The notes beneath the pieces are model-generated. The model was given only the letters and a program-made list of their open reading frames with translations, was not told the origin of the DNA and did no database searches. Both the position numbers and the translations under genes were made by a program. From Candidatus Saccharimonadales bacterium (GTDB taxonomy: Bacteria; Patescibacteriota; Saccharimonadia; Saccharimonadales; UBA4665), in contig DATFHW010000025.1 of NCBI GenBank assembly GCA_035247965.1, positions 510,551 to 574,550 of the forward strand: DNA of 64,000 bases, written 5' to 3'. Positions 16,008 to 52,598 of the stretch are shown here, one piece after another. Numbering within the stretch: position 1 is the first letter of the stretch; each line of letters begins with the position of its first letter.

Positions 16008-16103
16008 AATCGTAATTTATTATAGCACGCTCTAGTGCGCATGCCAGCCTTGAATAACAGATTACTTGCAAAACCTGATGATTTCCTGTGAGTTGGCTGG
16101 AAA

Positions 16104-16132
16104 TTGCTTAATAACTAAAATTATGGTATAAT
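16104..16132 (+). promoter_or_regulatory. sigma70-type promoter TTGCTT-N17-TATAAT (extended -10 TGG) for GC-rich block A
   Basis: TTGCTT at 16104-16109, a 17-nt spacer, then TATAAT at 16127-16132. It lies in the AT-rich ftsA upstream region. Confidence 0.5.
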
Positions 16133-16190
16133 GTGCTGGTCCGAGTTTTACCCGCGCACATTCACATTCCCGAGAGGAAAAACATTCATC

Positions 16191-16784
16191 ATGCAGCCCG
16201 AGATCGAGGGATCCGAGCGTTCCGCTTCGGCCAAAAACCCCAAGCTCCCGCGTTACGACCTCATTCGGTCGTGGCCGCAGTCGATCATCAGTGCCGGCGC
16301 CGTAGTGCTGCTCGCGCTGTACATGGCCGTCGTCGGACTCACGTCCTTCGAAGCCCTGAAGCGCGTACTCACCTGCGCCACCCCCATCGACGCGTCCACG
16401 GACGTCTACGGCGACTCGTACTACAACTACGGGTACCGCTACGACGACATCGGCAACAGCAAGGTCTGCGTTCCCGCAAACCTGCACGCCAGCTGGGTCC
16501 CGGCCTCGCTCGCCGCGCTGTCGATGACCGCCCTGGCAGTTCTGGCGCTGATCCTGGTCGGCTACCTGCTGCACATGACGTACCAGTACGTCTACAACCT
16601 GCAGAACGCCCCGGTGACGCCCTCCGACGACGACCGTCGCTTGTGGGGCAGCGCCACCCGCAGCCTGTTCGTGATCCCCGACTTCGTCAAGGTCGCCACC
16701 AAGGGCCTGACCGGCGCCGGCGGCATCTTCATGCTCGCGGCCGTCACGTTCTACTGCGTCATCTACCTCGTCGCCCTCGGCTAA
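16191..16784 (+). CDS. block A membrane protein (197 aa, about 3 TM)
   Basis: Internal ATG of track ORF 16131..16784, preceded by GAGAGGAAAA. G/C-rich third codon positions. Hydrophobic helices. Confidence 0.7.
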   Translation: MQPEIEGSERSASAKNPKLPRYDLIRSWPQSIISAGAVVLLALYMAVVGLTSFEALKRVLTCATPIDASTDVYGDSYYNYGYRYDDIGNSKVCVPANLHASWVPASLAALSMTALAVLALILVGYLLHMTYQYVYNLQNAPVTPSDDDRRLWGSATRSLFVIPDFVKVATKGLTGAGGIFMLAAVTFYCVIYLVALG

Positions 16785-16793
16785 GGAGCCACG

Positions 16794-17015
16794 ATGCTCA
16801 AGAAAGCATTGGCCCAGGTCTGTGCGACGCTGCTCATGGTCGCGATCAAGCTCGCACCGCTGCAGTTCGTGCACGCAATCAAGCAGCTCGAACCGCCACC
16901 CCAGGGCACCATGGACCCGAAGCTGGAAGCCAAGCTGCGTCGCCATATCCGCGACGACAATCCGCTGCGGGAGGCCGTCGACCGACGCGTTTTCCCGTTC
17001 GGTCCCCGTTGGTAG
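16794..17015 (+). CDS. block A small protein (73 aa) with a hydrophobic N-terminus
   Basis: AAGGAG lies 6 nt upstream of the ATG. Confidence 0.65.
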   Translation: MLKKALAQVCATLLMVAIKLAPLQFVHAIKQLEPPPQGTMDPKLEAKLRRHIRDDNPLREAVDRRVFPFGPRW

Positions 17016-17038
17016 TCACACCGAAAGGAAGTACCACC

Positions 17039-17332
17039 ATGAACACCCCCGACCCCACCGGCAAGTTCGGCAAGGCCACGCGAATCGTCCGAGACCACCC
17101 GGTGTTCACCGGACTCGCGCTGTTCACTGGCGTTGTTGTCGTCACCCGAACCGTGGTTCGCCGCTCCAACAAGTTCGACATCGTCGAGCTGCCGGCCACC
17201 GACGTTCCCGAGCAGAGCGCCCCCAAGACCGTCAAGGTCGACCTGGGAGACCTCGGCACCATCGAGGAGCCCGCAGATGGCCGGCGCGGCACGGACGGCG
17301 ACGACCCGATCTCCAAGGAGATCCGTCCCTGA
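17039..17332 (+). CDS. block A single-TM protein (97 aa) with an acidic tail
   Basis: ATG preceded by CCGAAAGGAAG. The sequence lies in the frame of track ORF 16133..17332. MNTPDPTGKFGKATRIVRDHPVFTGLALFTGVVVV... Confidence 0.65.
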   Translation: MNTPDPTGKFGKATRIVRDHPVFTGLALFTGVVVVTRTVVRRSNKFDIVELPATDVPEQSAPKTVKVDLGDLGTIEEPADGRRGTDGDDPISKEIRP

Positions 17333-17805
17333 TGAGACCCAGTCCTCAACCGCTCAGCCCGTTCTTCCGGCAGTACCAGCAAGAGCTGGACGCCTGGATG
17401 CGCGAGCAGGGCACCCTACGACGCAACGCGCGTCTGCGCATGGGCATCATCTGCCTGGGCGCGGTCGCATATGCGCTGCTGACGCACTGGTGTCACACGG
17501 CGGTCCGTTCCACGTTCTGCGCCCAGTCCACAATCACCTGCGCGGAGTTCAACAACCCCCGCAACCACTGGCACTGGAGCTACTGGGGAGTCGCCGCAAT
17601 GTTGGCACTCGCCATCATCGGTGCCGGCGCCCTCGCCAGCATGACCGCCATCTGGTTCTCGTCGCTCAGCCGTCGGCTGCACATCCGTGGCCCGGCCACC
17701 AAGACCGAGAACCGTCTGACGTTCATCCGTTGGTACTGCGTGATCACCACGGTGACCCTGGGCTACGGCCTGTTCTGGTACATGATTGTCCACCTCGGGA
17801 GGTAA
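17332..17805 (+). CDS. block A membrane protein (157 aa, about 4 TM)
   Basis: Its ATG overlaps the upstream TGA (TGATG coupling). MRPSPQPLSPFF... lies in the frame of track ORF 16822..17805. Confidence 0.65.
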   Translation: MRPSPQPLSPFFRQYQQELDAWMREQGTLRRNARLRMGIICLGAVAYALLTHWCHTAVRSTFCAQSTITCAEFNNPRNHWHWSYWGVAAMLALAIIGAGALASMTAIWFSSLSRRLHIRGPATKTENRLTFIRWYCVITTVTLGYGLFWYMIVHLGR

Positions 17806-17823
17806 CCCTGTAAAACTCGGATC

Positions 17824-17897
17824 AACCGGGATGACCTGCCACAAGAAGCGTGCCTGACGGCGCGACCAACTTCTTCGCAGTGTTCATCCCGGTTTTT
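17824..17897 (+). terminator. long-loop hairpin AACCGGGATGA/TCATCCCGGTT followed by a T5 run
   Basis: 11-bp complementary arms at 17824-17834 and 17884-17894, followed by TTTTT. Confidence 0.45.
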
Positions 17898-17916
17898 CCA
17901 TATAAAAAATGCTAAC

Positions 17917-17945
17917 TTGAATATATGCGCTATTTATGGCATAGT
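17917..17945 (+). promoter_or_regulatory. promoter TTGAAT-N17-CATAGT
   Basis: AT-rich patch inside the GC-rich block, just upstream of 18002..18310. Confidence 0.35.
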
Positions 17946-18001
17946 ACACATGTTCAAGTTTGCACCTGTTTTGACCCGCGACTCACGAAAGCGAGACATC
18001 C

Positions 18002-18310
18002 ATGGCACAGAAACAGTCTGGCCCGGTCCGCACATTCATCACCGGGGGCCTTCTGGGGCTCGGCCTGTACGGCATCGGCGCGTACGCCATGAGCAGGGCT
18101 ATGCCGCACGGCAACGCTCAGAAGCAGATCTTTCACGGGGGTCCCCTTGCCGCCTCCCCCACCTCCGTGGTCATGATGTTTCTCAGCCTGGTGGTACTGG
18201 CGGCGTTGTACGCCTTCGACTCCGAGGGCCGAAGCGCCAAGGCTACGCTCCTGAAAGTCGCTGCCAGCTGGGTGATCGTATGGGCCACCATCGGCGCCCT
18301 TATCTTCTAG
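18002..18310 (+). CDS. block A membrane protein (102 aa, 3 TM)
   Basis: Track ORF. GC3-rich. Hydrophobic helices. Confidence 0.7.
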   Translation: MAQKQSGPVRTFITGGLLGLGLYGIGAYAMSRAMPHGNAQKQIFHGGPLAASPTSVVMMFLSLVVLAALYAFDSEGRSAKATLLKVAASWVIVWATIGALIF

Positions 18311-20680: not shown

Positions 20681-20842
20681 ATGGACCCCTACAAACTCTT
20701 GGTTGGCCTGTTGGTGGTGATCATCTTGGGCACTCTGCTCCTGATGATCATCAAGAAGGCCGGCAAGACCGTCGTGCTGTGCGCAATCGGCCTGGCCCTG
20801 ATCCTGGGACCGATGGCCTGCACCGCGCTCACCAAGCAGTAG
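20681..20842 (+). CDS. block B 2-TM miniprotein (53 aa; not in ORF track)
   Basis: MDPYKLLVGLLVVIILGTLLLMIIKKAGKTVVLCAIGLALILGPMACTALTKQ. GAAGGAAGG lies upstream. 49 of 54 codons end in G or C. Confidence 0.65.
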   Translation: MDPYKLLVGLLVVIILGTLLLMIIKKAGKTVVLCAIGLALILGPMACTALTKQ

Positions 20843-20856
20843 TCGAAGGAGTCCGA

Positions 20857-21009
20857 ATGGACAAAACGACACTGATCGTGGGCCTTATGGCCGCGATCAT
20901 CGGTGGTGGAATCGTCGCGAAGTTGGCTAGTAGAGGCTACCGTGCTGCTGCCATAACGATCATCGTTGTGAGTGTGCTCGCAGCCATCGCTGCCGACCTC
21001 GTGAAGTAA
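20857..21009 (+). CDS. block B 2-TM miniprotein (50 aa)
   Basis: MDKTTLIVGLMAAIIGGGIVAKLASRGYRAAAITIIVVSVLAAIAADLVK. Internal Met of track ORF 20779..21009, preceded by GAAGGAG. Confidence 0.65.
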   Translation: MDKTTLIVGLMAAIIGGGIVAKLASRGYRAAAITIIVVSVLAAIAADLVK

Positions 21010-21029
21010 CCAACCGAAAGGAGTGGCGC

Positions 21030-21194
21030 ATGCCGCTTCCCCAGAAAGAAACCCGTGGTGGCTGGTGGTGGCTCCGTCTGCTGATGCTGGTGGCCTTCCT
21101 GGTCGCCTGCCTCATCGCATTCGGGTCGGACCTCATCAACGGCAACTCCAACGAGCCGCACCGCCCGCCGCACAGCACCTCGACCCACAAGTAG
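21030..21194 (+). CDS. block B single-TM miniprotein (54 aa; not in ORF track)
   Basis: MPLPQKETRGGWWWLRLLMLVAFLVACLIAFGSDLINGNSNEPHRPPHSTSTHK. CCGAAAGGAG lies upstream. Confidence 0.6.
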   Translation: MPLPQKETRGGWWWLRLLMLVAFLVACLIAFGSDLINGNSNEPHRPPHSTSTHK

Positions 21195-21201
21195 GAGCAC
21201 T

Positions 21202-21288
21202 ATGAAGCACAAGATTGCCGTGGCCCTGTTCATCCTCCTGGTTTTCGGAGGAATGACCTGGGCCTACCTGGGCCTCGAAGGCAAGTAG
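21202..21288 (+). CDS. block B single-TM micropeptide (28 aa; not in ORF track)
   Basis: MKHKIAVALFILLVFGGMTWAYLGLEGK. TAGGAG lies 5 nt upstream. Confidence 0.5.
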   Translation: MKHKIAVALFILLVFGGMTWAYLGLEGK

Positions 21289-21290
21289 CC

Positions 21291-21470
21291 GTGGAGGTCA
21301 CCGTACCGCTCGTGGGGCTTGGCGTAGCCGCCGTTGCCGTGGTCCTCGGACTGTCGCTGACGGCCCTGCCCAACCCCAAGGTGAGCCTGCTGGGCCGCCG
21401 CATCGCTACGTTCGTGACGCTTGTGAGCGTTGCGGTCGTGCTGCTGTATGTGGCGGTTCATCACAACTAG
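21291..21470 (+). CDS. block B 2-TM miniprotein (59 aa, GTG start; not in ORF track)
   Basis: MEVTVPLVGLGVAAVAVVLGLSLTALPNPKVSLLGRRIATFVTLVSVAVVLLYVAVHHN. It starts 2 nt after the upstream stop. Confidence 0.5.
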   Translation: MEVTVPLVGLGVAAVAVVLGLSLTALPNPKVSLLGRRIATFVTLVSVAVVLLYVAVHHN

Positions 21471-21483
21471 GAAGAAGGTGCTC

Positions 21484-21693
21484 ATGAGTGCTCTGGCACT
21501 CAGACTCAGTGCAGACACGGCAACCACCCTGGCGGTTATCGCCGCCATCGGCAGCCTGCTGATGTGCGCCCTGGGGATCGCCCTGGCCGCCTCGCGTAAA
21601 ACCGAGGTCAAGCGGCGTGGCAAGATCATCATCACGTTCCTCGTGGTGGCCTGGATCGGGTTCTTCCTGATCTGGAAGGCGCTCCATGAGTGA
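21484..21693 (+). CDS. block B 2-TM miniprotein (69 aa)
   Basis: Internal Met of track ORF 21430..21693, preceded by GGAAGAAGG. MSALALRLSADTATTLAVIAAIGSLLMCALGIALAASRK... Confidence 0.65.
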   Translation: MSALALRLSADTATTLAVIAAIGSLLMCALGIALAASRKTEVKRRGKIIITFLVVAWIGFFLIWKALHE

Positions 21694-21728
21694 GCTCGTG
21701 GTAGCCACCTGAACAACCGGTTGCAGGT

Positions 21729-21761
21729 CCGGCGTCATTCGCCTAAAAACGAGGACGCCGG
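21729..21761 (+). terminator. GC-rich hairpin CCGGCGTC/GACGCCGG with no U-tract
   Basis: 8-bp perfect stem between two sub-arrays of block B. Confidence 0.35.
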
Positions 21762-21785
21762 TCTGCCGCATAGAAAGTAACAGAC

Positions 21786-21983
21786 GTGGAAACATTCATT
21801 TCCCTGGCCGCAACCGGACAGAACGACAACACCCTGGGTGCTGCCGCGGTCGCGCTCGTTGTCGCCCTCGTCTTCGTGCTGGCCGGTGCATTCGCCCCGT
21901 TCAGCAAGGCTGGAAGGCTCAAGCTGATCGGTCTCGGCGCACTGACCTGCGTCGCCGCGATCGCCCTGATCTGGGTGTCCTAG
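21786..21983 (+). CDS. block B 2-TM paralog 1 (65 aa, GTG start)
   Basis: Track ORF. AGAFAPFSKAGRLKLIGLGAL matches AGFAAPFSGKTRVCLALIGVV of paralog 4. Confidence 0.65.
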   Translation: METFISLAATGQNDNTLGAAAVALVVALVFVLAGAFAPFSKAGRLKLIGLGALTCVAAIALIWVS

Positions 21984-21993
21984 AGAGGAAAAC

Positions 21994-22200
21994 ATGCACA
22001 CGCTCGTCACACTGGCACAGGCTGGTTCGGACAGCTTTCACACGATGGTGGGCGCGATCGCTCTGGCGATTGTGCTCTGCATCTGTGGAGCCGCCTTCTG
22101 GATCCACCGAAAGGCCGGGCAGGCTACGCCGAAATCGATCGGTCTCGCAGTTCTGGGACTGGCGATCATGGGCGTGGCGCTCGTTCTGATGATCATCTAG
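21994..22200 (+). CDS. block B 2-TM paralog 2 (68 aa)
   Basis: Track ORF. RBS GAGAGGAAAA. Confidence 0.7.
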   Translation: MHTLVTLAQAGSDSFHTMVGAIALAIVLCICGAAFWIHRKAGQATPKSIGLAVLGLAIMGVALVLMII

Positions 22201-22208
22201 GGAGGAAC

Positions 22209-22424
22209 ATGAACGTCGCACAAACCCTCGCAGCCGCAAGTAACATGACCCCCACGTCGTGGGTCGGCCTTCTGGTCGCCTTCATTGGCGTGGTAGTCAT
22301 GTGCTTCAACGGCCTGCGTGCGCAGATCACCGGTAAACCGAGCCTCAAGCTCTGGGTGATCGGCGCAATCCTGGTCGTCGGCGGCATCGTGCTCGCAGCC
22401 CAGACAGGCATTCACTCGACCTGA
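22209..22424 (+). CDS. block B 2-TM paralog 3 (71 aa)
   Basis: Track ORF. RBS GGGAGGAA. Confidence 0.7.
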   Translation: MNVAQTLAAASNMTPTSWVGLLVAFIGVVVMCFNGLRAQITGKPSLKLWVIGAILVVGGIVLAAQTGIHST

Positions 22425-22436
22425 GAGGAAAAAGGA

Positions 22437-22625
22437 ATGCTCGAAAAATTGGCCGCAGCGGATCTGAACAACGCGGTCTTTCCCCCGGCCCTTTTTGGGG
22501 TCGTCGCCCTCGCCTTCATCACGGCCGGCTTCGCCGCTCCGTTCAGCGGAAAGACACGCGTCTGCCTGGCCCTCATCGGCGTGGTGGCCGCTGTGATCTG
22601 CTTCCGTCTGATCACAAAGTCCTAG
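22437..22625 (+). CDS. block B 2-TM paralog 4 (62 aa)
   Basis: Track ORF. RBS GAGAGGAAAAAGGA. Confidence 0.7.
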   Translation: MLEKLAAADLNNAVFPPALFGVVALAFITAGFAAPFSGKTRVCLALIGVVAAVICFRLITKS

Positions 22626-22664
22626 GAAAGCGTGTACGCGCTTCGGCCAACCGAGAGGAAAAGG

Positions 22665-22895
22665 ATGCAACAAACGCTAGCTGTAACACCCGGTGAAAGC
22701 CTGCAGGGCATGGCGCTGGTCGTTGGCTACTTCGCCACCGCCGGCTTCCTGGCCCTTACAGCCTACTGCCTGCACGGGACGTTCATGCGCCCGGGCAGCT
22801 TGGGCAAACGAGCCACCAGGTTCCTGGTCGCTGTTCTGTCGATTGTGGCCATGGCGTTCATCGTCATGCACACGGTACCGAGGAGAAATCAATGA
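22665..22895 (+). CDS. block B 2-TM paralog 5 (76 aa)
   Basis: Internal Met (MQQTLAV) of track ORF 22632..22895, preceded by GAGAGGAAAAGG. Confidence 0.65.
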   Translation: MQQTLAVTPGESLQGMALVVGYFATAGFLALTAYCLHGTFMRPGSLGKRATRFLVAVLSIVAMAFIVMHTVPRRNQ

Positions 22896-23107
22896 AGGAA
22901 GCGCTCATCATCGCGGCCGCCCAGCAGACGACGTCTGTGGGTGAGCACAAGGCCGAGCTCATCGGGATGGCCATCGGTTTCATCCTGACCATCGCCGGAG
23001 TCTGGCGAAACGCCAACAACCAAAGCGACAAGAACAAGGGCGGTTTCCTCGTCGGCCTGGGCCTCGTGATCGTCGTCGGGAGCGGGATCATCCTGCTGTA
23101 CTCATAG
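22892..23107 (+). CDS. block B 2-TM paralog 6 (71 aa)
   Basis: Track ORF. ATGA overlap with the upstream gene. RBS GAGGAGAAA. Confidence 0.7.
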   Translation: MKEALIIAAAQQTTSVGEHKAELIGMAIGFILTIAGVWRNANNQSDKNKGGFLVGLGLVIVVGSGIILLYS

Positions 23108-23160
23108 TAGGCGCCGCGACCTAAGTCGCTCTGCAATTCTGAACAACCCGCACGAAGACG

Positions 23161-23212
23161 GCCTCCGGGCTGGCACCCGCCAGCAACCTGCCGTTCCCCG
23201 GCATCCGGAGGC
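23161..23212 (+). terminator. nested GC-rich hairpin GCCTCCGG...CCGGAGGC with no U-tract
   Basis: Outer 8-bp stem enclosing an inner GCTGGC-accc-GCCAGC stem. It follows the six-paralog array. Confidence 0.4.
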
Positions 23213-23314
23213 ACGTCGTGTAAACATATGGTTGAGCGCCCGCGCTCCCATCACTGTTTGCACGACTTTTTCATACTTATTTATTTTTTACGAACATCAT
23301 ACACATTACATACG

Positions 23315-23343
23315 TTGACATTGCATGCTCGCGGGCGTACACT
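23315..23343 (+). promoter_or_regulatory. promoter TTGACA-N17-TACACT
   Basis: Consensus -35 at 23315-23320 and TACACT at 23338-23343, within an AT-rich patch. Confidence 0.55.
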
Positions 23344-23382
23344 GTCCACGTCTGTAAAAAACGACGACCCCAAGGGGGAAAC

Positions 23383-23535
23383 ATGAGCAAGTCCAAGCAC
23401 GCTCGCGGTCGCTGGGACGGTTGCATTGTGCCGGCCGTTCTGCTGACTGTCGCCTTGGCGGCTGGGATCTACGTCTTCCACAGTGAGCTCGGGACGTTCT
23501 TTGTCAATCTGGTGCAGCAGCTCGTAGGACGCTAA
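23383..23535 (+). CDS. basic-N-terminus single-TM miniprotein (50 aa; not in ORF track)
   Basis: MSKSKHARGRWDGCIVPAVLLTVALAAGIYVFHSELGTFFVNLVQQLVGR. AAGGGGGAA lies upstream. Confidence 0.6.
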   Translation: MSKSKHARGRWDGCIVPAVLLTVALAAGIYVFHSELGTFFVNLVQQLVGR

Positions 23536-24153: not shown

Positions 24154-24401
24154 CCACACGCTCCTCCAGCACGCCTTCCCAGCCTGATTAGAAAAAGCAG
24201 TGAGCCTCCCGCTGGGCAGCCCGCACCACAAGTGCCCTGCCCCGGGAGGATCCTGTAACACCCCATACCCGCCCCTTTGCTATGAACCCGGACAACCCCC
24301 ACAAACCTTTGTTGAGGTCGCACTCGCGACATCCGAAGGCACAATCGTGCACGCAACCCTACCCTACCAACTTTTACGTGCACGATTTTTTCCTATTTAC
24401 A

Positions 24402-24430
24402 TTGACAATACCTAATATCGGTGATATAAC
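24402..24430 (+). promoter_or_regulatory. promoter TTGACA-N17-TATAAC
   Basis: TTGACA at 24402-24407 and TATAAC at 24425-24430. Confidence 0.5.
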
Positions 24431-24489
24431 GTACGCAGTTCGTCTGAACATAGTACGTTGAAAATTTAGTTGTATTGGAGGTGAGATCT

Positions 24490-24630
24490 TTGCAGCTCGC
24501 TTCAGAGGGCTTCGGCAGTGCCGGGCCTATTTTTTGTTACATCGGAATGGTCCTATTCGTCCTATGGTGGTGGCGTGGACGTGGTCCTCGACCTCCCAGG
24601 GGTGGCGGCCGTTCCGATATCGTCCACTAG
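24490..24630 (+). CDS. single-TM miniprotein with a WWW and Arg/Gly/Pro-rich tail (46 aa, TTG start; not in ORF track)
   Basis: MQLASEGFGSAGPIFCYIGMVLFVLWWWRGRGPRPPRGGGRSDIVH. GGAGGTGA lies 6 nt upstream of the TTG. Confidence 0.4.
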   Translation: MQLASEGFGSAGPIFCYIGMVLFVLWWWRGRGPRPPRGGGRSDIVH

Positions 24631-24720: not shown

Positions 24721-25044
24721 ATGAGTGCATCCGCGCTCATCACGGCCACCCAGCTGGCCAGTTCGTCCGGCACCAGCCTTGCGGCGGCAGCCAGCCCCGA
24801 CGTGCAGACCGCAATCCTGGTGGGTTGTGGCATCGTGCTCGGGGCCGGTCTGCTCATCAAGCTGGTGATGCCCAAGATCCCGCTCTGGCTGATCATGTTG
24901 GTCGCCTGCGTGATCTGCGCCGGCGTCAGCTTCATGGGCCTCTACGCCGGCAACCTGCCGTTCAAGTCGATCGCCGGCGCCCTCCTGGTGCTGTCGATCC
25001 TCACCTTCCTGGCGGCCAAGCTCGTCAAGGGCTCGCGGCACTAG
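24721..25044 (+). CDS. block B membrane protein (107 aa, 3 TM), MSASAL family
   Basis: Track ORF. RBS ACGGAGGTAAC. Confidence 0.7.
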   Translation: MSASALITATQLASSSGTSLAAAASPDVQTAILVGCGIVLGAGLLIKLVMPKIPLWLIMLVACVICAGVSFMGLYAGNLPFKSIAGALLVLSILTFLAAKLVKGSRH

Positions 25045-25086
25045 GACACCGTCCTGTCCGACTCACCGTAAAGGGGATCTCGGTTC

Positions 25087-25182
25087 ATGCCGACTTCCTG
25101 TGGGATGACCCCCGGCCAGACGGTAATCGCAGTCGCGTTCGTCCTTCTGGCCGGTGTGGTCGTGATCGCAGGGCTTAGCTAG
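25087..25182 (+). CDS. CGMTPG-motif single-TM micropeptide (31 aa; not in ORF track)
   Basis: MPTSCGMTPGQTVIAVAFVLLAGVVVIAGLS. Homologous to 25469..25585. Confidence 0.5.
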   Translation: MPTSCGMTPGQTVIAVAFVLLAGVVVIAGLS

Positions 25183-25210
25183 ATCCGAGTCCATCAACGG
25201 AGGTAACCAT

Positions 25211-25456
25211 ATGGGTGCATCCGCACTCGTACCCCTCGCAAGCATGCTGCAGAAGGAGCACCCCGTTCCCGGGATGTTCCTCGTGGCAGTCTTCGGCGTG
25301 GGGTTCGTCGTCTCGGCGATCGCGGTCGCGAGGTACGGCAATAAGAAGGGCGCCGAGAAGGTACTGCTCGTCAGCACCATCGTCGGTGCCCTGGGCGGCG
25401 GAGCAGCTGTCTGGATCATGATCATGCTGCTCAGCGCCATACGCATGCAGGGATGA
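25211..25456 (+). CDS. block B membrane protein (81 aa, 2 TM), MGASAL family
   Basis: Track ORF. Its RBS and first codons are near-identical to those of 24721 (ACGGAGGTAAC..ATGnGTGCATCCGC). Confidence 0.7.
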   Translation: MGASALVPLASMLQKEHPVPGMFLVAVFGVGFVVSAIAVARYGNKKGAEKVLLVSTIVGALGGGAAVWIMIMLLSAIRMQG

Positions 25457-25468
25457 GGGCCTGAATCC

Positions 25469-25585
25469 GTGGGAAGCTTCTGTGGAATGACCCCGGGCGA
25501 GCTGATGTTCGCAGGCGTCTTCGTCCTTCTGTTCGGAATTGTGTACGCCATCGGGCGACGCAACAAGAACAAGGAGGGCGACTGA
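25469..25585 (+). CDS. CGMTPG-motif single-TM micropeptide (38 aa, GTG start; not in ORF track)
   Basis: MGSFCGMTPGELMFAGVFVLLFGIVYAIGRRNKNKEGD. Confidence 0.5.
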   Translation: MGSFCGMTPGELMFAGVFVLLFGIVYAIGRRNKNKEGD

Positions 25586-25644
25586 TGCTCACCGCACCAC
25601 TCGCCGGGGTCAGCTCCGCTACCGACACGTCCGCCAACAAGTAG
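25585..25644 (+). CDS. possible 19-aa peptide (not hydrophobic)
   Basis: MLTAPLAGVSSATDTSANK. TGATG coupling, with AAGGAGGG 6 nt upstream. It may be a remnant. Confidence 0.25.
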   Translation: MLTAPLAGVSSATDTSANK

Positions 25645-25663
25645 ACCAACGGAGGTATCTACT

Positions 25664-25900
25664 GTGCAACACCTCGCTGTTGCGGCATTCGCTGCCGGCA
25701 ACACCGGAAACCTCGTCTCCGCCCAGATGCTGGTGGGAGAGTTCGTTGGGATATTCATCATCGCGACGATCTACACCATCGTCAAGGCAAAGCGGAAGAA
25801 CACCAGGAATCCGGTCGCGTTCGGCATCACCATGGGCGCCGTCACCGGCATCCTCGCCGTCCTGCTCACGGTCTTCCTGGGCACCTACTTTCGGCTGTAA
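25664..25900 (+). CDS. block B 2-TM protein (78 aa, GTG start)
   Basis: Track ORF. RBS ACGGAGGTA. Confidence 0.65.
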   Translation: MQHLAVAAFAAGNTGNLVSAQMLVGEFVGIFIIATIYTIVKAKRKNTRNPVAFGITMGAVTGILAVLLTVFLGTYFRL

Positions 25901-25910
25901 GGAGGGGTAA

Positions 25911-26114
25911 ATGAGCTCCGCGAGCTCTGTTCTGGAAACGGGCGTCACCATCGGCGGCACGCACATCAACGGCCTGCTTCTGATCGCAGCGATCATCGTG
26001 GTCGTGGCGATTGTGGCGTTTGCGCTGCTGAAAACCACCAAGGCAGTGATCGTCTCGGTGGCAACGGCCGCCATCATCGCCGGTGCAACCGCACACGGAT
26101 GGTGGTGGCACTGA
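25911..26114 (+). CDS. block B 2-TM protein (67 aa)
   Basis: Track ORF. RBS AAGGAGGGG. Confidence 0.7.
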   Translation: MSSASSVLETGVTIGGTHINGLLLIAAIIVVVAIVAFALLKTTKAVIVSVATAAIIAGATAHGWWWH

Positions 26115-26203
26115 TGTCCAGCGTCAGCCCTGGTGCCCTTGGCTGGGCAGTGGCCCTGATCGTCGTGGGCGTCATCGTCGTCATACGACGAGGCCGCCGG
26201 TGA
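26114..26203 (+). CDS. single-TM micropeptide with an RRGRR tail (29 aa; not in ORF track)
   Basis: MSSVSPGALGWAVALIVVGVIVVIRRGRR. TGATG coupling with the upstream gene. Confidence 0.5.
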   Translation: MSSVSPGALGWAVALIVVGVIVVIRRGRR

Positions 26204-26225
26204 CCAAATCAACGGGGGACTTCCG

Positions 26226-26303
26226 ATGAAGTGGGTCGGCGTGCTGATCGTACTCATCGGAATTGTCGCGATGTTCTACGGAACTCGTGGCACACGAAGG
26301 TAA
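26226..26303 (+). CDS. single-TM micropeptide (25 aa; not in ORF track)
   Basis: MKWVGVLIVLIGIVAMFYGTRGTRR. GGGGGA lies upstream. Confidence 0.45.
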   Translation: MKWVGVLIVLIGIVAMFYGTRGTRR

Positions 26304-26355
26304 TCGCAGATAACGGCAGCAGATCGCTCGCCGTTCAACGGAGGGAAACCCGCAC

Positions 26356-26499
26356 ATGAGTCACCTCGTCCGCGCCATCAACCTGGCGGCCGTCGACAAC
26401 CGCGCGTTCAAGCTGGAGGACCACCCGGTCTTCTGCATCGTGTCGATCGTCGTGTTCGCCGCCGGCGTCATCTACCTGTGGCGCAAGAAGAGCTCGTAA
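26356..26499 (+). CDS. tail-anchored miniprotein (47 aa; not in ORF track)
   Basis: MSHLVRAINLAAVDNRAFKLEDHPVFCIVSIVVFAAGVIYLWRKKSS. ACGGAGGGAAA lies upstream. Confidence 0.6.
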   Translation: MSHLVRAINLAAVDNRAFKLEDHPVFCIVSIVVFAAGVIYLWRKKSS

Positions 26500-26508
26500 G
26501 GGGGCATC

Positions 26509-26649
26509 ATGCACATCACACAGGCAGCGCTGGAGTACCTGGCGTACACGCCGAGCAACAAGCACTTCGGCATGAACAACACCACCTTCTTCACGGTGGT
26601 GTTCGGCGGAATCGGTCTGGTCATCTTCCTTCTCACGAAGAAGAAGTAG
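26509..26649 (+). CDS. tail-anchored miniprotein (46 aa; not in ORF track)
   Basis: MHITQAALEYLAYTPSNKHFGMNNTTFFTVVFGGIGLVIFLLTKKK. AAGGGGG lies upstream. Same architecture as 26356. Confidence 0.6.
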   Translation: MHITQAALEYLAYTPSNKHFGMNNTTFFTVVFGGIGLVIFLLTKKK

Positions 26650-26747
26650 TTCTTGGCCGTCGTCGGACTTCTTCTGATCAAGCGGCGTGGCGACTAGCCT
26701 CGACCGCACACTCCACCCACGCAACACCTCACGGAAGGAACACGCGC

Positions 26748-26906
26748 ATGTCGCGTCTCACCGTCAGCGCACAGACCCTCGCGGGCGACGTCGCCGCCAA
26801 GTCCGGACACGGGATCCCCGTCGGCTGGATCGGCTTCGGCGCCGTCATGATCGTCCTGCTGGTCATCGGTGTCCGCTGGGCCCGCGGTCGCAACAACAAG
26901 GGCTGA
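26748..26906 (+). CDS. single-TM miniprotein (52 aa)
   Basis: MSRLTVSAQTLAGDVAAKSGHGIPVGWIGFGAVMIVLLVIGVRWARGRNNKG. Internal Met of track ORF 26478..26906, preceded by CGGAAGGAA. Confidence 0.6.
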   Translation: MSRLTVSAQTLAGDVAAKSGHGIPVGWIGFGAVMIVLLVIGVRWARGRNNKG

Positions 26907-46130: not shown

Positions 46131-46760
46131 TCAGCGACCGATGGGGTAGAACTCGCGGTGGATGCGGTCGAGCTGGTCCAGCGTGATGGTCATGTCGATG
46201 AAGCCGGGAAGAACCAGCGCGAACTCAGGGATGGCAGCGTTCTGCTTGTAGAACCTCTTGATCGACGGCGAGTACATGACCATGACGGCCAGCACCGCGT
46301 CGCGGTTGTAGATCTGGTCCAGCGGGGTGAGGGTGATCTCCTCGACGGAGCGCTTGTCGAACATGAGCGAGCCGGGGATGCCCGTGGCGGCGCGGAAGGC
46401 GCGCAGGAACGTGCCGTAGACGGCCGGCTTCATGACGTCGACCGCGCTGTTGCGGATGGAGTCGTTCTGCACGGTGGGACCGTAGCCAGCCATGGCCGAC
46501 AGCAGCCAGACCAAGTTGAGTCGCGCCGCAGAGTCCAGAGCGCCGTGAACGGCCTCCGCCATCTGGCGGGTGTTGGTGAACTTCTCGGGGAGCGAGTCGG
46601 CGCTGGTGCGCTGCTCAGGGGTCGCGGGCTGTACGGCCGAGGTCTCGCGACGGAGCCACGGGTTCCTCAGGGTCTTGCGCGCCAGGAAGGCGAACAGGAC
46701 GATGAGCACGACGGCACCGCCAATGAGCCAGGGATACAGCTCGGGCTGGATCGAAGACAT
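46131..46760 (-). CDS. block C protein (209 aa) with an N-terminal TM and a soluble domain of unknown function
   Basis: Internal ATG of track ORF 46131..46859. The GC-rich part starts here. MSSIQPELYPWLIGGAVVLIVLFAFLARK... Confidence 0.65.
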   Translation of the reverse strand: MSSIQPELYPWLIGGAVVLIVLFAFLARKTLRNPWLRRETSAVQPATPEQRTSADSLPEKFTNTRQMAEAVHGALDSAARLNLVWLLSAMAGYGPTVQNDSIRNSAVDVMKPAVYGTFLRAFRAATGIPGSLMFDKRSVEEITLTPLDQIYNRDAVLAVMVMYSPSIKRFYKQNAAIPEFALVLPGFIDMTITLDQLDRIHREFYPIGR

Positions 46761-46963
46761 GACAGGATCTCTTTCTCTCGCTTGAACGACAAAGCCGTTT
46801 CTCCAAACGTCGGAGAATGATGTGTGATTCTGTAACACACGGCTAAAGCGAGTACCCAATTCACCTCTGTTATAAGGTGCGCTCGGTACTCACTTTAAAC
46901 CGATGTTCTGTTTGTTAAGGCGGCAGTGGAAAATACCTATAAGTCTCTCCAAAGCCACGTAAT

Positions 46964-46992
46964 ATAATACCATAAATGCAACAAAAAAGCAA
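46964..46992 (-). promoter_or_regulatory. promoter TTGCTT-N17-TATTAT (minus strand)
   Basis: The plus strand shows ATAATA at 46964-46969 and AAGCAA at 46987-46992. A structured leader of about 190 nt follows. Confidence 0.45.
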
Positions 46993-47016
46993 TGCTTATG
47001 ACTACTTTTATGCACT

Positions 47017-47040
47017 AAAAAACAGCCCAAAAATGGCTGC
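47017..47040 (-). terminator. rho-independent terminator (linker copy 1)
   Basis: On the minus strand: GCAGCC-attttt-GGGCTG followed by TTTTTT. Homologous to 47997..48020. Confidence 0.7.
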
Positions 47041-47056
47041 AAATTATAGGGTGATG

Positions 47057-47070
47057 CTTTGAGAAGAAGT
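47057..47070. repeat. 14-nt cassette-boundary inverted repeat (CTTTGAGAAGAAGT)
   Basis: One mismatch to the reverse complement of 47879-47892. Confidence 0.6.
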
Positions 47071-47147
47071 TGGTTTGAAAGAGATCGAGCCGAGGCGGCC
47101 AGCGTGAGCATGAAGCTCCGAGCTGGCCGCCAACAGGCGTGAGTGGA

Positions 47148-47804: not shown

Positions 47805-47878
47805 GTTATCTCTCTTTCGTGCGACACGTTTCTAGGGGTAGTGCTACAGGGCATTACGGCGTAGAACGCGGTATCACA

Positions 47879-47892
47879 ACTCCTTCTCAAAG
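47879..47892. repeat. 14-nt cassette-boundary inverted repeat (ACTCCTTCTCAAAG; carries the SD on the minus strand)
   Basis: Exact reverse complement of 48041-48054. Confidence 0.65.
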
Positions 47893-47923
47893 GTCGTGCT
47901 CTCTGGTTGAGAACAGAATCTAT

Positions 47924-47952
47924 ATTATACCACTTATTCATTAAAAATGCAA
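47924..47952 (-). promoter_or_regulatory. promoter TTGCAT-N17-TATAAT with extended -10 (minus strand)
   Basis: The plus strand shows ATTATA at 47924-47929 and ATGCAA at 47947-47952. Confidence 0.55.
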
Positions 47953-47996
47953 TTTTAGCGTAAGCAGTAAGGCCGGGATAAAAAATAAAAATCATC

Positions 47997-48020
47997 AAAA
48001 AACAGCCCCAAATGGGGCTG
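47997..48020 (-). terminator. rho-independent terminator (linker copy 2)
   Basis: On the minus strand: CAGCCCC-attt-GGGGCTG followed by TTTTTT. Confidence 0.75.
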
Positions 48021-48040
48021 CAAAAATTACAGGGGTGGTG

Positions 48041-48054
48041 CTTTGAGAAGGAGT
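48041..48054. repeat. 14-nt cassette-boundary inverted repeat (CTTTGAGAAGGAGT)
   Basis: Pairs with 48667-48680 and with 47879-47892. Confidence 0.65.
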
Positions 48055-48137
48055 GCGTAGAGGGTGGCAAGGCGGCCGACACAGAGCTGATGCTCCAAGC
48101 CGGCCACCAGCCCACGATTTTCTTGCAGCTTTTGCGC

Positions 48138-48663: not shown

Positions 48664-48666
48664 GAT

Positions 48667-48680
48667 CTCCTTCTCAAAGG
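48667..48680. repeat. 14-nt cassette-boundary inverted repeat (CTCCTTCTCAAAGG; carries the SD on the minus strand)
   Basis: Reverse complement of 48041-48053 plus one extra base. Confidence 0.65.
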
Positions 48681-48708
48681 TCGGTTCTCGGTCGAGAACA
48701 TGAGGTCT

Positions 48709-48737
48709 GTTATATCATTAATCTTTTAAAATAGCAA
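48709..48737 (-). promoter_or_regulatory. promoter TTGCTA-N17-TATAAC (minus strand), followed by the hairpin GTTCTC-gacc-GAGAAC
   Basis: The plus strand shows GTTATA at 48709-48714 and TAGCAA at 48732-48737. Confidence 0.5.
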
Positions 48738-48858
48738 GGGAGGAGGGACTCGACACTAATTGACTGCAAGCGTGCCACCGGCACACTTGCTATTACTCGT
48801 TCGAGTCCCTTTTAACGCAAGAAATTAAAAAGACCACCAAATGGTGATCTTTTTAATT

Positions 48859-48945
48859 TGGTGGGCGAGGAGGGACTCGAACCCTCAAGACTGTAAGGTC
48901 AGCGGATTTTAAGTCCACCGCGTATACCAATTCCGCCACTCGCCC
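48859..48945 (-). tRNA. tRNA-Leu (anticodon UAA), CCA encoded
   Basis: 87-nt cloverleaf: acceptor GGGCGAG/CTCGCCC, anticodon loop CTTAAAA, a long variable arm, and T-arm GAGGG-TTCGAGT-CCCTC. Confidence 0.9.
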
Positions 48946-50521: not shown

Positions 50522-50586
50522 GTACCGGGTTAACGAGTGCTATTGTACCAGCTTTTTGCGGCAATGAACAGATAGACCTGCGCGCT

Positions 50587-51366
50587 TTATTGCGCTTTGC
50601 CGCCTTTTTTCCAATTTACCGCCAGCAAGAACGGCGCAAACAAGTCTTCTTCTACCGGAATGATCGTTTCTTGCAGTTCTTCGGCGCTTGGATCGCGGCC
50701 TTGAAATGTTACAAACGGCACGTCGCTTACTACGGCAATCGGCGTTTGCTCGGTTCCCTCGCCCATCTGTAAAACGGCTGCGGCCGAAATACCGCCGGCA
50801 ATGTCGGCCTGCGACACCGCAAATGGTCGGCCAAACAGATCTGGCTTCCCTACATAATTGTTGAGTGCGCTAAAACCGCTGTGCGCCAGAGTAATGCCCA
50901 TGGTGCCACGGCGTAACGGATGGCAGGTACTGTCGGTAATCACCACACCCACGTTTTGCAGATTGAAGCGGTTGCGCAAATATACCCGAATATCGTTGGC
51001 GGTTTTTTGTGGATCACGCGGCCACAAAACGTAATCATCGCCACCGTTTGAGCCGTCGATGCCGGCCGCCGGAATCAGCGTGTTGTCATTAATGGTAAAG
51101 TGATGGCCGTATTTGCTGAGCTCAGCTGGCAGGTAGCGTTCGGATTCCTGAATAATCAGCGCTTCGCGGTCGGTGCCTTCCATGGGAACCACGGCGCCCT
51201 CACACAATGAAACAATTTTAGAGGTAATTGCTACCACGCTTCCCTCTTCCAGCTGATCCAGGTAGCGGTCCAGTAAGTCAGTTAAGCTAAGCACGCCAGC
51301 GGTAATTACATCAGTTTTTACAGTTCGGACTATCATAGTGGGCAGTATACCAGGCTTTTTTGGCAA
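50587..51366 (-). CDS. CofE-like (F420-0:gamma-glutamyl ligase family) protein
   Basis: AITSKIVSLCEG, IPAAGIDGSN and VITDS motifs resemble the CofE/FbiB N-domain family. Confidence 0.55.
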   Translation of the reverse strand: MPKKPGILPTMIVRTVKTDVITAGVLSLTDLLDRYLDQLEEGSVVAITSKIVSLCEGAVVPMEGTDREALIIQESERYLPAELSKYGHHFTINDNTLIPAAGIDGSNGGDDYVLWPRDPQKTANDIRVYLRNRFNLQNVGVVITDSTCHPLRRGTMGITLAHSGFSALNNYVGKPDLFGRPFAVSQADIAGGISAAAVLQMGEGTEQTPIAVVSDVPFVTFQGRDPSAEELQETIIPVEEDLFAPFLLAVNWKKGGKAQ

Positions 51367-51386
51367 ACAAAAAGCCCCGTGGGGCG
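51365..51386 (-). terminator. rho-independent terminator of block D
   Basis: On the minus strand: GCCCC-ac-GGGGC followed by TTTTTGTTT. Confidence 0.6.
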
Positions 51387-51543
51387 TGTAGTTCGTGTGG
51401 GATGGTTCAAGCGGACAATTCGGGGAAAACGGGGTGGGGCGTGGAAGCCCAGTGGTGGCACTTCCACGCCCGCGGTTCTCCGTTCCTTCGATCGTAGGTG
51501 GCCAGATGGCCGGGTCAGGTTGGCCGACGGCCGAGGTTCTTGG

Positions 51544-52446
51544 TCAGGCGGCGAGCTCGGCGTTCTCCAGGAGGACCTTCAGGCTCCTCAGGATCTGTCC
51601 GATCCCGGAGAGCGGGTTCTGGGCCTGCCAGATGGGCTGGCCTTCGACGCCGACCTGGATGGTGTCGCCGAACATGAACAGCTGGCTGCCGTTGTGGTCG
51701 TACGACTTGTCGAGGTCGCGGGCGGCGAGACGGAACTGGCCGGCGGCCTGGATCGTGTTCGGCGCGTTGCCGATGACCAGCGTGTAGTGGTCGGCGTCCA
51801 GGAGCTCGCGGTGCTCGTCGAAGAGCTGCTCCAGGACGTCGGCGGCGTGACCGCTCTCGACGGGGATCAGCTGCGTCCTTGCGAAGCCGGCGGCCGCGAG
51901 CGCGGGCTCGATGAACCGGTCGACGAACGCCGCCTCGGTGGGCAGCCTCCCGCTCTCGTTGGCGAACGTGCGGACCAGCTGGTGCTCGGCGACGCTCATG
52001 ACACGGTTGCCCATCGGCAGGAGGACCTGTCCGACGGAGTTGGGGTCGATCCGCTGGGCGAGCGCCAGACGCCGGAGCATCCAGTTGGCGACGCCGCCCG
52101 AGAAGACGAGCGTGTCGACCTGCTGCGGTACGGCCACGGTGGGGTCGCAGAACGACCCGCGGAGCGCGGCCATGGCGCCGGAGCGCTGCAGCCAGTCGGC
52201 GCCGACCTGGAACGCGTCCTCGCCGAGGTACTTGAGGGCATGGACGATGTTGTCCTGGAGCGTCTTGTGCGGAGCCACCTTGCTGGTGACTTCGCTCAGG
52301 AACTGGGACGTGAGCTGGTCGGGGACCGCCAGGCCGAAGGACTGGATGATCTCTGTCAGGACGCCGCCGTTCTCGCTCTCACCGATGGTGAGGAGCAGGT
52401 CGGGGTGGTTCCGCACGGCGTGCAGGCTGTAGCAGCCGAAGTGCAT
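51544..52446 (-). CDS. block D soluble protein of unknown function (300 aa)
   Basis: Internal ATG of track ORF 51544..52530, preceded by GGAGGGA. GC3-rich. No TM helix and no recognised motif. Confidence 0.65.
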   Translation of the reverse strand: MHFGCYSLHAVRNHPDLLLTIGESENGGVLTEIIQSFGLAVPDQLTSQFLSEVTSKVAPHKTLQDNIVHALKYLGEDAFQVGADWLQRSGAMAALRGSFCDPTVAVPQQVDTLVFSGGVANWMLRRLALAQRIDPNSVGQVLLPMGNRVMSVAEHQLVRTFANESGRLPTEAAFVDRFIEPALAAAGFARTQLIPVESGHAADVLEQLFDEHRELLDADHYTLVIGNAPNTIQAAGQFRLAARDLDKSYDHNGSQLFMFGDTIQVGVEGQPIWQAQNPLSGIGQILRSLKVLLENAELAA

Positions 52447-52526
52447 GATGAATCCCTCCGAAGGGGCTAGAATTGTCTGCTTGAACGAGCTGTGATGGAT
52501 CTGTAAAAGCCTCCAAAACAGCCTAT

Positions 52527-52555
52527 ACAATACTATGATTCACCTTTTTTTGCAA
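52527..52555 (-). promoter_or_regulatory. promoter TTGCAA-N17-TATTGT (minus strand)
   Basis: The plus strand shows ACAATA at 52527-52532 and TTGCAA at 52550-52555. Confidence 0.4.
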
Positions 52556-52598
52556 GCCACCGAACAACTACGCCTTCAGGATATTTGCGACTTGCTAG

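Follow-up and report, generated by a model that had tools for sequence, protein, structure and literature searches.

The 64,000-nucleotide stretch analyzed here, referred to below as the window, belongs to contig DATFHW010000025.1 in the near-complete metagenome-assembled genome of a soil Candidatus Saccharimonadales bacterium and carries four G+C-rich blocks of genes set into a backbone of ordinary housekeeping genes. These blocks probably consist of native, vertically inherited, genus-specific operons encoding membrane miniproteins, together with a gene encoding a YdcF-like enzyme, the codons of which are held at G or C by a fixation bias acting at the level of the open reading frame (ORF). 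We give this reading a probability of about 0.6. A sequence-only reading of the same DNA had suggested that the blocks were host-derived cargo from Actinobacteria; this is not supported, since collinear ORFs occur at the same loci with the same G+C content at third codon positions (GC3) in congeneric species, and the searches returned no homologue from a named actinobacterium.

The abrupt changes in composition described in that reading were confirmed by 500-nt windows and by the frame-specific G+C content, and the limits of the blocks were refined to 16191-18310, 20681-27454, 46131-48663, and 51544-52446. The G+C content of the 500-nt windows amounts to 0.55-0.69 in the blocks vs. 0.44-0.55 elsewhere, and the excess has a periodicity of three, with values of 0.85-1.00 in one codon frame and of about 0.35-0.65 in the other two. 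The G+C content at first positions (GC1) exceeds that at second positions (GC2) in the blocks, as expected of coding DNA. The GC3 of the block ORFs (n = 30) ranges from 0.70 to 0.96 and that of 40 backbone ORFs from 0.40 to 0.62. These ranges do not overlap, which bears out the claim that third positions are nearly all G or C in the blocks, down to the 49 of 54 codons ending in G or C in the ORF at 20681-20842 (GC3 0.91). The G+C enrichment is limited to the third positions of reading frames. Backbone genes located 150-750 nt from a block have a GC3 of 0.57-0.60, and those more than 2 kb away one of 0.51-0.57; since there is no decay with distance, the change in composition is a step and not a gradient. 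In block and backbone genes alike, GC3 dips across the first codons.

The flanking genes were identified by Pfam as those encoding an FtsA-like protein, AlaS, MnmA, MetG, a CofE-like F420-0:gamma-glutamyl ligase, and a membrane protein, which confirms that the blocks occupy intergenic gaps between the housekeeping genes previously named; tRNA-Leu(TAA) and tRNA-Cys genes are also present in the window. The products were rightly described as mostly small and hydrophobic: at least one transmembrane (TM) segment is predicted in 29 of the 30 block proteins, the exception being the soluble 300-amino acid (aa) protein of block 4. The approximately 29 membrane proteins are 25-209 aa long and have 1-4 TM helices, and nearly all the block ORFs are preceded by a Shine-Dalgarno (SD)-like site 5-10 nt 5' of the ATG or GTG. 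The blocks were also said to contain no recognizable mobility genes, and indeed no integrase, transposase, relaxase, or phage family was matched by the block proteins tested against Pfam and PHROGs; Pfam, PHROGs, and Rfam gave nothing informative for block proteins or spacers. The small membrane proteins of other Saccharibacteria showed no significant rise in GC3 (+0.03, p = 0.5).

All the close relatives with a contig covering the locus carry the block, which is absent only in species with an AlaS identity of 75% or less; the closest AlaS relatives among GTDB species representatives are Saccharibacteria with at most 75% identity. The orthologue of the block-4 gene adjoins cofE in the relatives' loci L081-L083, L084/L085, L086, and L096/L097, where it is 55-63% identical and has a GC3 of 0.91-0.95, that of its neighbors being about 0.5. 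Block 3 was found in L084, L086, L096, and L097, block 2 in L092-L095, and one block-1 gene in L092. The alaS-mnmA gap of L092-L095 is filled by about 30 small ORFs on the same strand, and 15 pairs of block-2 ORFs occur in identical order between species. Over the regions recovered, the window and a relative's 1.1-Mb contig (Ga0500566_0000001; loci L084 and L092) are collinear. The backbone proteins are 78-94% identical between the window and the relatives and the block proteins 31-71%, the GC3 of the relatives' blocks being 0.56-0.95. The same ORFs with the same composition are therefore present at the same intergenic loci at the genus level, which argues against a recent acquisition. In the wider group, mnmA, alaS, and ftsA are contiguous in about 40 other loci of Saccharibacteria or members of the candidate phyla radiation (CPR), the gaps often measuring only 18-70 bp; those gaps that are filled are not G+C-rich and contain no homologue of any block protein, and none of the block proteins gave a tblastn match in 80 alaS loci from other species. 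The blocks are insertions relative to this wider group.

Several comparisons between species bear on how the composition has been maintained. At four-fold degenerate sites in block 4, we counted 25 differences between strong bases (S, G or C; S<->S) and 10 between strong and weak bases (W, A or T; S<->W), as compared with 109 and 578, respectively, in the backbone (Fisher p = 2e-13). The four-fold identity to the relatives is 0.64 in block genes (0.49 being expected by chance in block 4) and 0.43-0.56 in the backbone (chance 0.25-0.34). Among four-taxon singletons, S->W changes were found at 11 of 100 S sites in block 4 vs. 100 of 180 in the flanks (p = 3e-14), and S->S changes at 26 of 100 vs. 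10 of 180, so that S->W change is suppressed about 5-fold in block 4. The Nei-Gojobori synonymous distance (dS) is 0.36-0.45 in block 4, 0.37 in the gene encoding the 166-aa protein of block 2, 0.62 in that encoding the 209-aa protein of block 3, 1.07 in the small block-2 ORFs, and 1.47 in the backbone, whereas the nonsynonymous distance (dN) is 0.21-0.71 in block genes (0.26-0.36 in block 4) vs. 0.085 in the backbone. From a backbone four-fold distance of about 0.93 substitutions per site and the proportion of S<->W changes, we calculated that neutral relaxation would have approximately halved the GC3 excess in each lineage since the split between the window and L084, bringing a starting value of 1.0 down to about 0.79. 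The block-4 GC3 observed in four lineages is 0.92-0.95, from which it follows that the bias is held by a fixation bias, the strength of which (2Ns or B) we estimate at about 2.4 from the equilibrium odds. The GC3 of individual genes is correlated between species (r = 0.75), and the choice between C and G in S-ending codons is correlated with that in the relatives' blocks (r = 0.96) and with that in the backbone (r = 0.87-0.94).

Within one species, single-nucleotide polymorphisms (SNPs) affect 8 of 2064 nt in block genes (0.39%) and 210 of 16459 nt in the rest (1.28%; p = 1e-4). This low diversity within species, combined with the high divergence between species, suggests strong synonymous constraint together with episodic adaptive change or gene-specific sweeps, and the low strain-level SNP density rules out local hypermutation in the block genes. 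Attenuation by rare codons was also ruled out, as the rare W-ending codons ATA, CTA, and TCA are depleted. The codons preferred in the blocks are TTC, ATC, GTC, AAG, and GAG, as compared with TTT, ATT, GTG, AAA, and GAA in the ATP-synthase and aminoacyl-tRNA synthetase (aaRS) genes, which alone made up the highly expressed comparison set. The fractions of TTC, ATC, GTC, and AAG are 0.93, 0.90, 0.50, and 0.85 in the blocks and 0.23-0.28, 0.25-0.34, 0.10, and 0.35 in this set, against which extreme translational optimization was ruled out. The bias is not confined to sense codons: TAA is the stop codon of 6 of the 30 block ORFs vs. 22 of the 40 backbone ORFs (p = 0.004). In their amino acids, the block membrane proteins also lean slightly towards those with G/C-rich codons, as seen in GC1 (0.61 vs. 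0.55) and in the proportion of valine, V/(V+I) (0.61 vs. 0.45).

According to the reading we prefer, ordinary sigma-70-type promoters would drive the transcription of the block operons and ordinary SD sites their translation, and a continuing fixation bias against A/T-ending codons would act gene by gene, each gene having its own GC3 level; the outcome would be two codon dialects, one in the backbone and a second in the blocks. The force involved is most likely selection on the codon or mRNA composition of this class of miniprotein genes, and probably not biased gene conversion. Two properties might be the targets of this selection: the block mRNAs may resist A/U-directed, ribosome-dependent cleavage, or their expression may be coupled to a G/C-rich supply of nucleotides or tRNAs while the cell is feeding on a high-GC host.

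Several points weigh against this reading. The singletons corresponding to S->W changes (11) outnumber the W->S ones (1), which leaves room for slow net decay or segregating deleterious variants. In the flanks, the window and L086 form the closest pair (identity 0.89-0.93), whereas in block 4 their identity is 0.60 and that between L081 and L086 is 0.68; this mild incongruence of distances allows for some exchange of alleles; L084 is the outgroup in block 4 and flanks alike. The selective agents proposed above are candidates, and the block bias does not extend the native expression-linked bias seen in the ATP-synthase and aaRS genes. The depletion of TAA points to a force acting at the level of composition and not purely at that of tRNAs, as does the small shift in amino acids (GC1, V over I). 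The shift away from TAA suggests that selection acts on the base composition of what is translated rather than on tRNA matching alone. Lastly, the comparison covered about 40 kb per relative and, of this genome, the 64 kb of the window.

It is doubtful whether the blocks or their miniprotein operons were acquired in an ancient horizontal transfer from a high-GC donor (such as an actinobacterial host or its phage) and have simply kept the codon usage of the donor. About 40 other Saccharibacteria/CPR species lack them between mnmA, alaS, and ftsA, which is consistent with such an event, as is the partial copy of the tRNA-Leu 3' end beside block 3, and fast protein evolution could hide the donor homologues. 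The GC3 classified by codon context is 0.90/0.87/0.75 in the blocks and 0.90/0.86/0.79 in Rhodococcus/Subtercola ORFs, and the dinucleotide distance delta* to Actinobacteria is 92-150, as compared with 183 to the window's own backbone. The high GC3 was thus aptly called Actinobacteria-like, the codon usage being numerically equal to that of Rhodococcus/Subtercola, but it does not serve as evidence of a donor: backbone proteins recoded with block codons give the same similarity of signature (delta* 137, 188), which makes this signature a by-product of GC3. The dinucleotide and codon-junction signatures were therefore dropped as donor evidence, and the codon-context dependence of GC3 was dropped as an argument against an actinobacterial origin, since Actinobacteria show the same dependence. 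Passive retention would give a G+C content of at most about 0.79 at four-fold degenerate sites, as compared with the 0.92-0.95 observed with S->W change suppressed 5-fold, so that even a foreign origin would require a maintenance mechanism. The GC1/GC2 values of the blocks (0.60/0.43) differ from those of Rhodococcus/Subtercola ORFs (0.67-0.70/0.47-0.52). The block-4 family appears to be native, its distant members having ordinary GC3 with unchanged GC1 and GC2, and the internal promoters and terminators are conserved and native in composition. The TAnnnT -10 boxes and U-less hairpins of the blocks had been taken to be Actinobacteria-like, but the promoters are ordinary (TTGACA-17-TAnnnT or an extended -10 such as TGGTATAAT) and several terminators are U-tailed, neither feature being specifically actinobacterial. 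Protein searches with four block proteins returned no match named as actinobacterial, and those matches for which the contig was read map either to the equivalent Saccharimonadales loci or to contigs of the Saccharibacteria type; searches of phage DNA, plasmid proteins, and IMG/VR gave no matches. An old foreign origin of the miniprotein operons is possible, and it is neither required nor sufficient to account for their persistence.

It is unlikely that the blocks are instead recombination hot spots subject to GC-biased gene conversion, consisting perhaps of host-interaction genes exchanged by natural transformation and swept, in which mismatch repair favoring G/C would have pushed weakly constrained sites towards G/C. 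This process would explain why fixation favors S at synonymous sites, why stop codons have shifted from TAA, and why GC1, GC2, and the V-over-I ratio are slightly shifted in the fast-evolving membrane proteins; the low diversity within species and the high divergence also fit gene-specific sweeps, which need recombination, and the block-4 tree is mildly incongruent with that of the flanks. The effect ends at the ORF ends, however, with no GC3 gradient 150-750 nt into the flanking genes, the spacers inside the blocks have a G+C content of only 37-54%, and the block-4 family shows no shift in GC1 or GC2 despite a dN of 0.26-0.36. To our knowledge, the jump from about 0.55 to about 0.93 far exceeds the effects of GC-biased gene conversion reported in bacteria. 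Gene conversion of this kind was reportedly described by Lassalle et al. in 2015 in recombining bacterial genes. It resembles the present case in that fixation of G/C is favored most strongly at synonymous sites, independently of tRNA pools, but it is regional and graded, whereas the effect in the blocks is gene-precise, spares spacers and flanks, and is much larger.

The recurrent replacement of cassettes, whereby the ORFs would be re-acquired via the conserved spacers and flanks from an unseen high-GC pool (an episome or a sister lineage), is improbable. In its favor, the coding sequences have diverged beyond the reach of blastn, the spacers between them being 72-91% identical, the repeated terminator-promoter modules could serve as anchors, and both the low diversity within species and the mild incongruence between the block-4 tree and the flanks could be accounted for. 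Searches of 5.8e9 and 1.84e9 proteins, however, turned up no representative of such a pool, and the homologues with a known context are all located at the same chromosomal loci; in addition, L084 is the outgroup in block 4 as in the flanks, collinearity is strict over at least 15 genes, and the GC3 levels of the individual genes are conserved.

It seems still more improbable that the dialect is an adaptation to the host instead of a relic of it, the operons being tuned to feeding on a high-GC actinobacterial host. In a mild form of this scenario, the expression of the blocks would rely on G/C-rich nucleotides or tRNAs from the host or would evade an A/U-directed, ribosome-dependent RNase. In its extreme form, the genes would be delivered to the host and expressed there, the miniproteins would insert into the host membrane, and the host would be able to use their codons, TAnnnT promoters, and SD sites alike. 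If true, the scenario would account for the Rhodococcus-type codon usage, the selection across speciation, and the ORF precision, as well as for an arms-race type of protein evolution between species combined with sweeps within species.

An artefact, that is to say a chimeric assembly or binning error joining a high-GC contaminant to a Saccharibacteria contig, can be dismissed although the sequence comes from a metagenome-assembled genome and changes abruptly in composition, since the same junctions recur in assemblies made independently from different samples and archives (ENA ERZ27321111 and ERZ27321116; Logan SRR14536362; JGI 3300053094, 3300046459, 3300046557, 3300046740, 3300046683, and Ga0075369), which excludes the chimerism envisaged in the sequence-only reading, and the junctions fall within conserved native spacers.

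In the light of these comparisons, the blocks, read above as probably native, ORF-level biased operons, can be set against known systems. The model of Lawrence and Ochman is said to describe horizontally acquired islands which are compositionally atypical and subsequently ameliorate. The blocks resemble acquired genomic islands in their abrupt change of composition, their location in intergenic gaps (one of them by a tRNA gene), their lineage-restricted orphan genes, and their absence further out. They differ in having no integrase and no convincing att repeats, an atypical composition only at the third positions of ORFs, and native, conserved internal regulatory DNA; they are also collinear across species and unameliorated, even though the synonymous sites of the backbone are near saturation. 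Codon-biased classes of genes under translational control include highly expressed genes, the TTA/bldA-dependent genes of Streptomyces, and transcripts tunable by tRNA modification. The block genes likewise form a subset with its own synonymous usage under selection, low dS, and a gene-specific level of bias; in contrast to these classes, the bias is uniform over all codon families, touches stop codons, and does not follow the housekeeping/ATP-synthase preference, and the proteins evolve fast. Small hydrophobic proteins encoded in tandem arrays, such as holin-like proteins, type I toxins, bacteriocin-immunity proteins, and VirB2-like pilins, show a similar size (50-110 aa), 1-2 TM segments, and same-strand arrangement, but the block proteins match none of them in Pfam or PHROGs, and no lysis, antitoxin RNA, bacteriocin, or type IV secretion genes that might act as partners were seen. 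No described equivalent was found in the literature.

Composition-based methods would label these blocks as recent horizontal transfers, which calls for caution when inferring such transfers in CPR/Patescibacteria. Host DNA is the obvious story in an epibiont of Actinobacteria, and the comparative data show otherwise: two codon dialects persist side by side across speciation in a genome reduced to about 0.8-1.1 Mb, and in some 30 orphan genes the synonymous sites are constrained about as strongly as the amino acid sites. The blocks therefore provide a natural system for studying a synonymous selection for G/C other than tRNA-matched expression or regional GC-biased gene conversion. The block proteins are probably membrane- or envelope-associated, lineage-specific, and fast-evolving, a profile that would suit those parts of an epibiont which are involved in host contact or defence, and as conserved, fast-evolving miniproteins they are prime candidates for the host-contact machinery of soil Saccharibacteria.

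Table 1. Genes and non-coding segments of the four blocks (positions in the window; TM, transmembrane segments).
Feature	Position	Strand	Characteristics
Block 1 gene 1	16191..16784	+	197 aa, 3 TM, NCBI VJ843_03485 (exact match), GC3 ~0.89
Block 1 genes 2-4	16794-17015 (73 aa), 17039-17332 (97 aa), 17332-17805 (157 aa)	+	small membrane proteins, GC3 0.8-0.9
Block 1 spacer	17806..18001	+	47% GC; promoter-like region 5' of 18002; conserved in part
Block 1 gene 5	18002..18310	+	102 aa, 2 TM, GC3 0.83
Block 2 first operon	20681..23107	+	~12 tandem ORFs, 50-87 aa, mostly two-TM hairpins, GC3 0.73-0.91, SD-like site each
Block 2 non-coding module	23145..23384	+	53% GC; GC hairpin, A/T-rich tract, TTGACA-17-TACACT promoter
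Block 2 short operons	23383-23535, 23535-23765, 24019-24153	+	second consensus promoter at 23943-23971
Block 2 spacer	24199..24494	+	AT-normal, conserved; third promoter TTGACA-17-TATAAC, GCACGATTTTTTCC 5' of promoter
Block 2 distal operons	24721..27454	+	~10 ORFs, 25-166 aa, GC3 0.77-0.96; last is a 166-aa 3-4-TM protein (26954-27454)
Block 3 distal gene	46131..46760	-	209 aa: N-terminal TM helix, disordered linker, all-alpha domain; GC3 0.85-0.91
Block 3 spacer 1	46761..47147	-	45% GC; U-tailed terminator and extended -10 promoter; one copy of repeated module
Block 3 middle genes	47148-47414 (88 aa, 2 TM), 47454-47804 (116 aa, 3 TM)	-	GC3 0.81-0.83
Block 3 spacer 2	47805..48137	-	47% GC; second terminator-promoter copy
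Block 3 proximal genes	48409-48663 (84 aa), 48138-48395 (85 aa)	-	two-TM, GC3 ~0.79
Block 3 leader and tRNA-Leu(TAA)	48664..48945	-	U-tailed terminator, inverted T-arm fragment, 17-nt partial copy of tRNA 3' end
Block 4	51544..52446	-	one 300-aa soluble protein, NCBI VJ843_03755, GC3 0.92, putative YdcF/DUF218-like fold

The block-4 protein VJ843_03755 was matched exactly on an 809,595-bp NCBI contig annotated as Candidatus Saccharimonadales bacterium, along with 24 homologues, and 26 residues are invariant across 25 homologues. Its AlphaFold2 (AF2) model has a predicted local distance difference test (pLDDT) score of 94.6, and the best meaningful PDB match is 3ca8, E. coli YdcF (Foldseek probability 1.0, template-modeling score 0.41-0.47, root-mean-square deviation 5.7, E ~6e-3, 14-15% identity). 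A template-modeling score below 0.5 indicates only a distant relationship with YdcF, and no match to Pfam DUF218 was obtained at E <= 0.1. The model has a Rossmann-like alpha/beta fold and differs from YdcF by an extra N-terminal helical region. The GC3 of distant homologues on other Saccharibacteria-type contigs is 0.34, 0.39, 0.57, and 0.58, with GC1/GC2 values of 0.60-0.69/0.40-0.47, as in the GC3-rich members; one of them is located 5' of metG-tatD in a 44% G+C genome. A rise of GC3 in situ is the simplest history for this gene; the miniproteins have no such outgroup. Homologues with a higher GC3 than their neighbors also occur in L098 (10001-10879; 0.58 vs. about 0.42), L088 (116-973; 0.80 vs. 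0.61-0.71), and L091 (6712-7071; 0.88 vs. 0.64-0.72), while those in L087 and L090 show no excess.

In block 1, VJ843_03485 has only two homologues (55% and 48% identity), and the gene encoding the 157-aa protein has a counterpart at the equivalent position of L092 (34% identity, GC3 0.76). The spacer at 17812-17908 is 75% identical to L092 292-395. The gene of the 102-aa protein has no counterpart in L092, where the conserved spacer directly adjoins alaS; the gene content of the blocks therefore differs among species even though their positions are fixed. The first operon of block 2 has collinear orthologues in L092 and L094 (34-48% identity), and the short-operon genes have orthologues in L092 (R5900, R6376). 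Weak paralogy was detected among the miniproteins, such as those starting at 21786 and 22437 (41%). The homologues of the 166-aa protein are 62-88% identical, one of them (GC3 0.91) being encoded at the equivalent locus of the relative's 1.1-Mb contig. In L092 (10842-11630), as in L093 and L094, a gene encoding a 262-aa GGDEF-domain protein lies between block 2 and mnmA; the equivalent part of the window (27455-27821) is a 367-nt spacer, and no GGDEF match occurs anywhere in the window. In block 3, the 209-aa protein has an orthologue at the equivalent locus of L084 (34% identity, GC3 0.90) and only 9 cluster representatives among 1.84e9 proteins; its AF2 model has a pLDDT above 90 over residues 60-205, and the predicted all-alpha domain has no match in the PDB. 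The region 47148-47804 aligns to L086 at 73%, and L084 has ORFs encoding 87 and 84 aa (GC3 0.73 and 0.66) at the position of the proximal genes.

Outside the genus, lone ORFs encoding membrane proteins with a moderately raised GC3 occur at equivalent gaps in two more distant Saccharibacteria, L001 (8673-9176, minus strand; GC3 0.74 vs. 0.56) and L010 (13601-14203, minus strand; 0.71 vs. 0.46), which may be a weaker form of the GC3 phenomenon. They show no detectable homology to the window proteins; in particular, a homology between the 166-aa protein and the L001 ORF, which is similar in size and position and has a raised GC3, was rejected after BLASTP and hhalign gave none.

The spacers within the blocks (37-54% G+C) are 72-91% identical between species, as compared with 77-81% for backbone coding DNA, and the ORFs between these conserved spacers are too diverged for blastn. 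In block 2, the 240-nt non-coding module, for which no Rfam family match was found, shows 85% nucleotide identity to L092 and L094, above the value for backbone coding DNA, and the spacer at 24199-24494 shows 72% identity to the same two loci. A motif, GCACGAYTTTTTYMT, is repeated at 23260 and 24380, and the A/T tract of the module (GCACGACTTTTTCAT...) also recurs at 24380. Block 3 contains a repeat (D1/D2, 47017-47070 vs. 47998-48054, about 980 nt apart) consisting of a terminator and promoter module, the first copy of which is 77% identical to L084, while the second has a 54-nt core 91% identical to L084. This arrangement suggests that entire small operons were duplicated in tandem.

No repeat pair brackets any of the blocks, and no att-type repeat was convincing. 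At 48745-48830 (minus strand), 3' of tRNA-Leu(TAA) and its U-tailed terminator, an inverted copy of the T-arm (GGGACTCGAAC) and a 17-nt direct partial copy of the tRNA 3' end (GTCGAGTCCCTCCTCCC) together form a long hairpin. The 17-nt copy lies about 100 nt from the tRNA gene, on the near side of block 3 only. These fragments may have been left behind by an old integration event at this tRNA gene.

In the backbone, AlaS (18457-20343, minus strand) has only 628 aa, comprising the catalytic domain and the second additional domain, and its relatives at other Saccharibacteria/CPR loci align across residues 1-628; a look-up of the exact AlaS protein found no record. Five consecutive genes at 29025-34115 (minus strand) encode secreted or anchored proteins of 262-363 aa resembling a cell-surface protein cluster, with weak Glucodextranase_B/PKD matches; the copies in a relative, where the cluster is 78-90% conserved, show faint fn3_5/WxL-type matches. 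At 61321-63998 (minus strand), a large ORF of putative helicase or restriction type, at least 689 aa long, runs past the end of the window and is preceded by a 200-aa ORF, these ORFs having a GC3 of 0.60-0.62, which is the upper limit of the backbone range.

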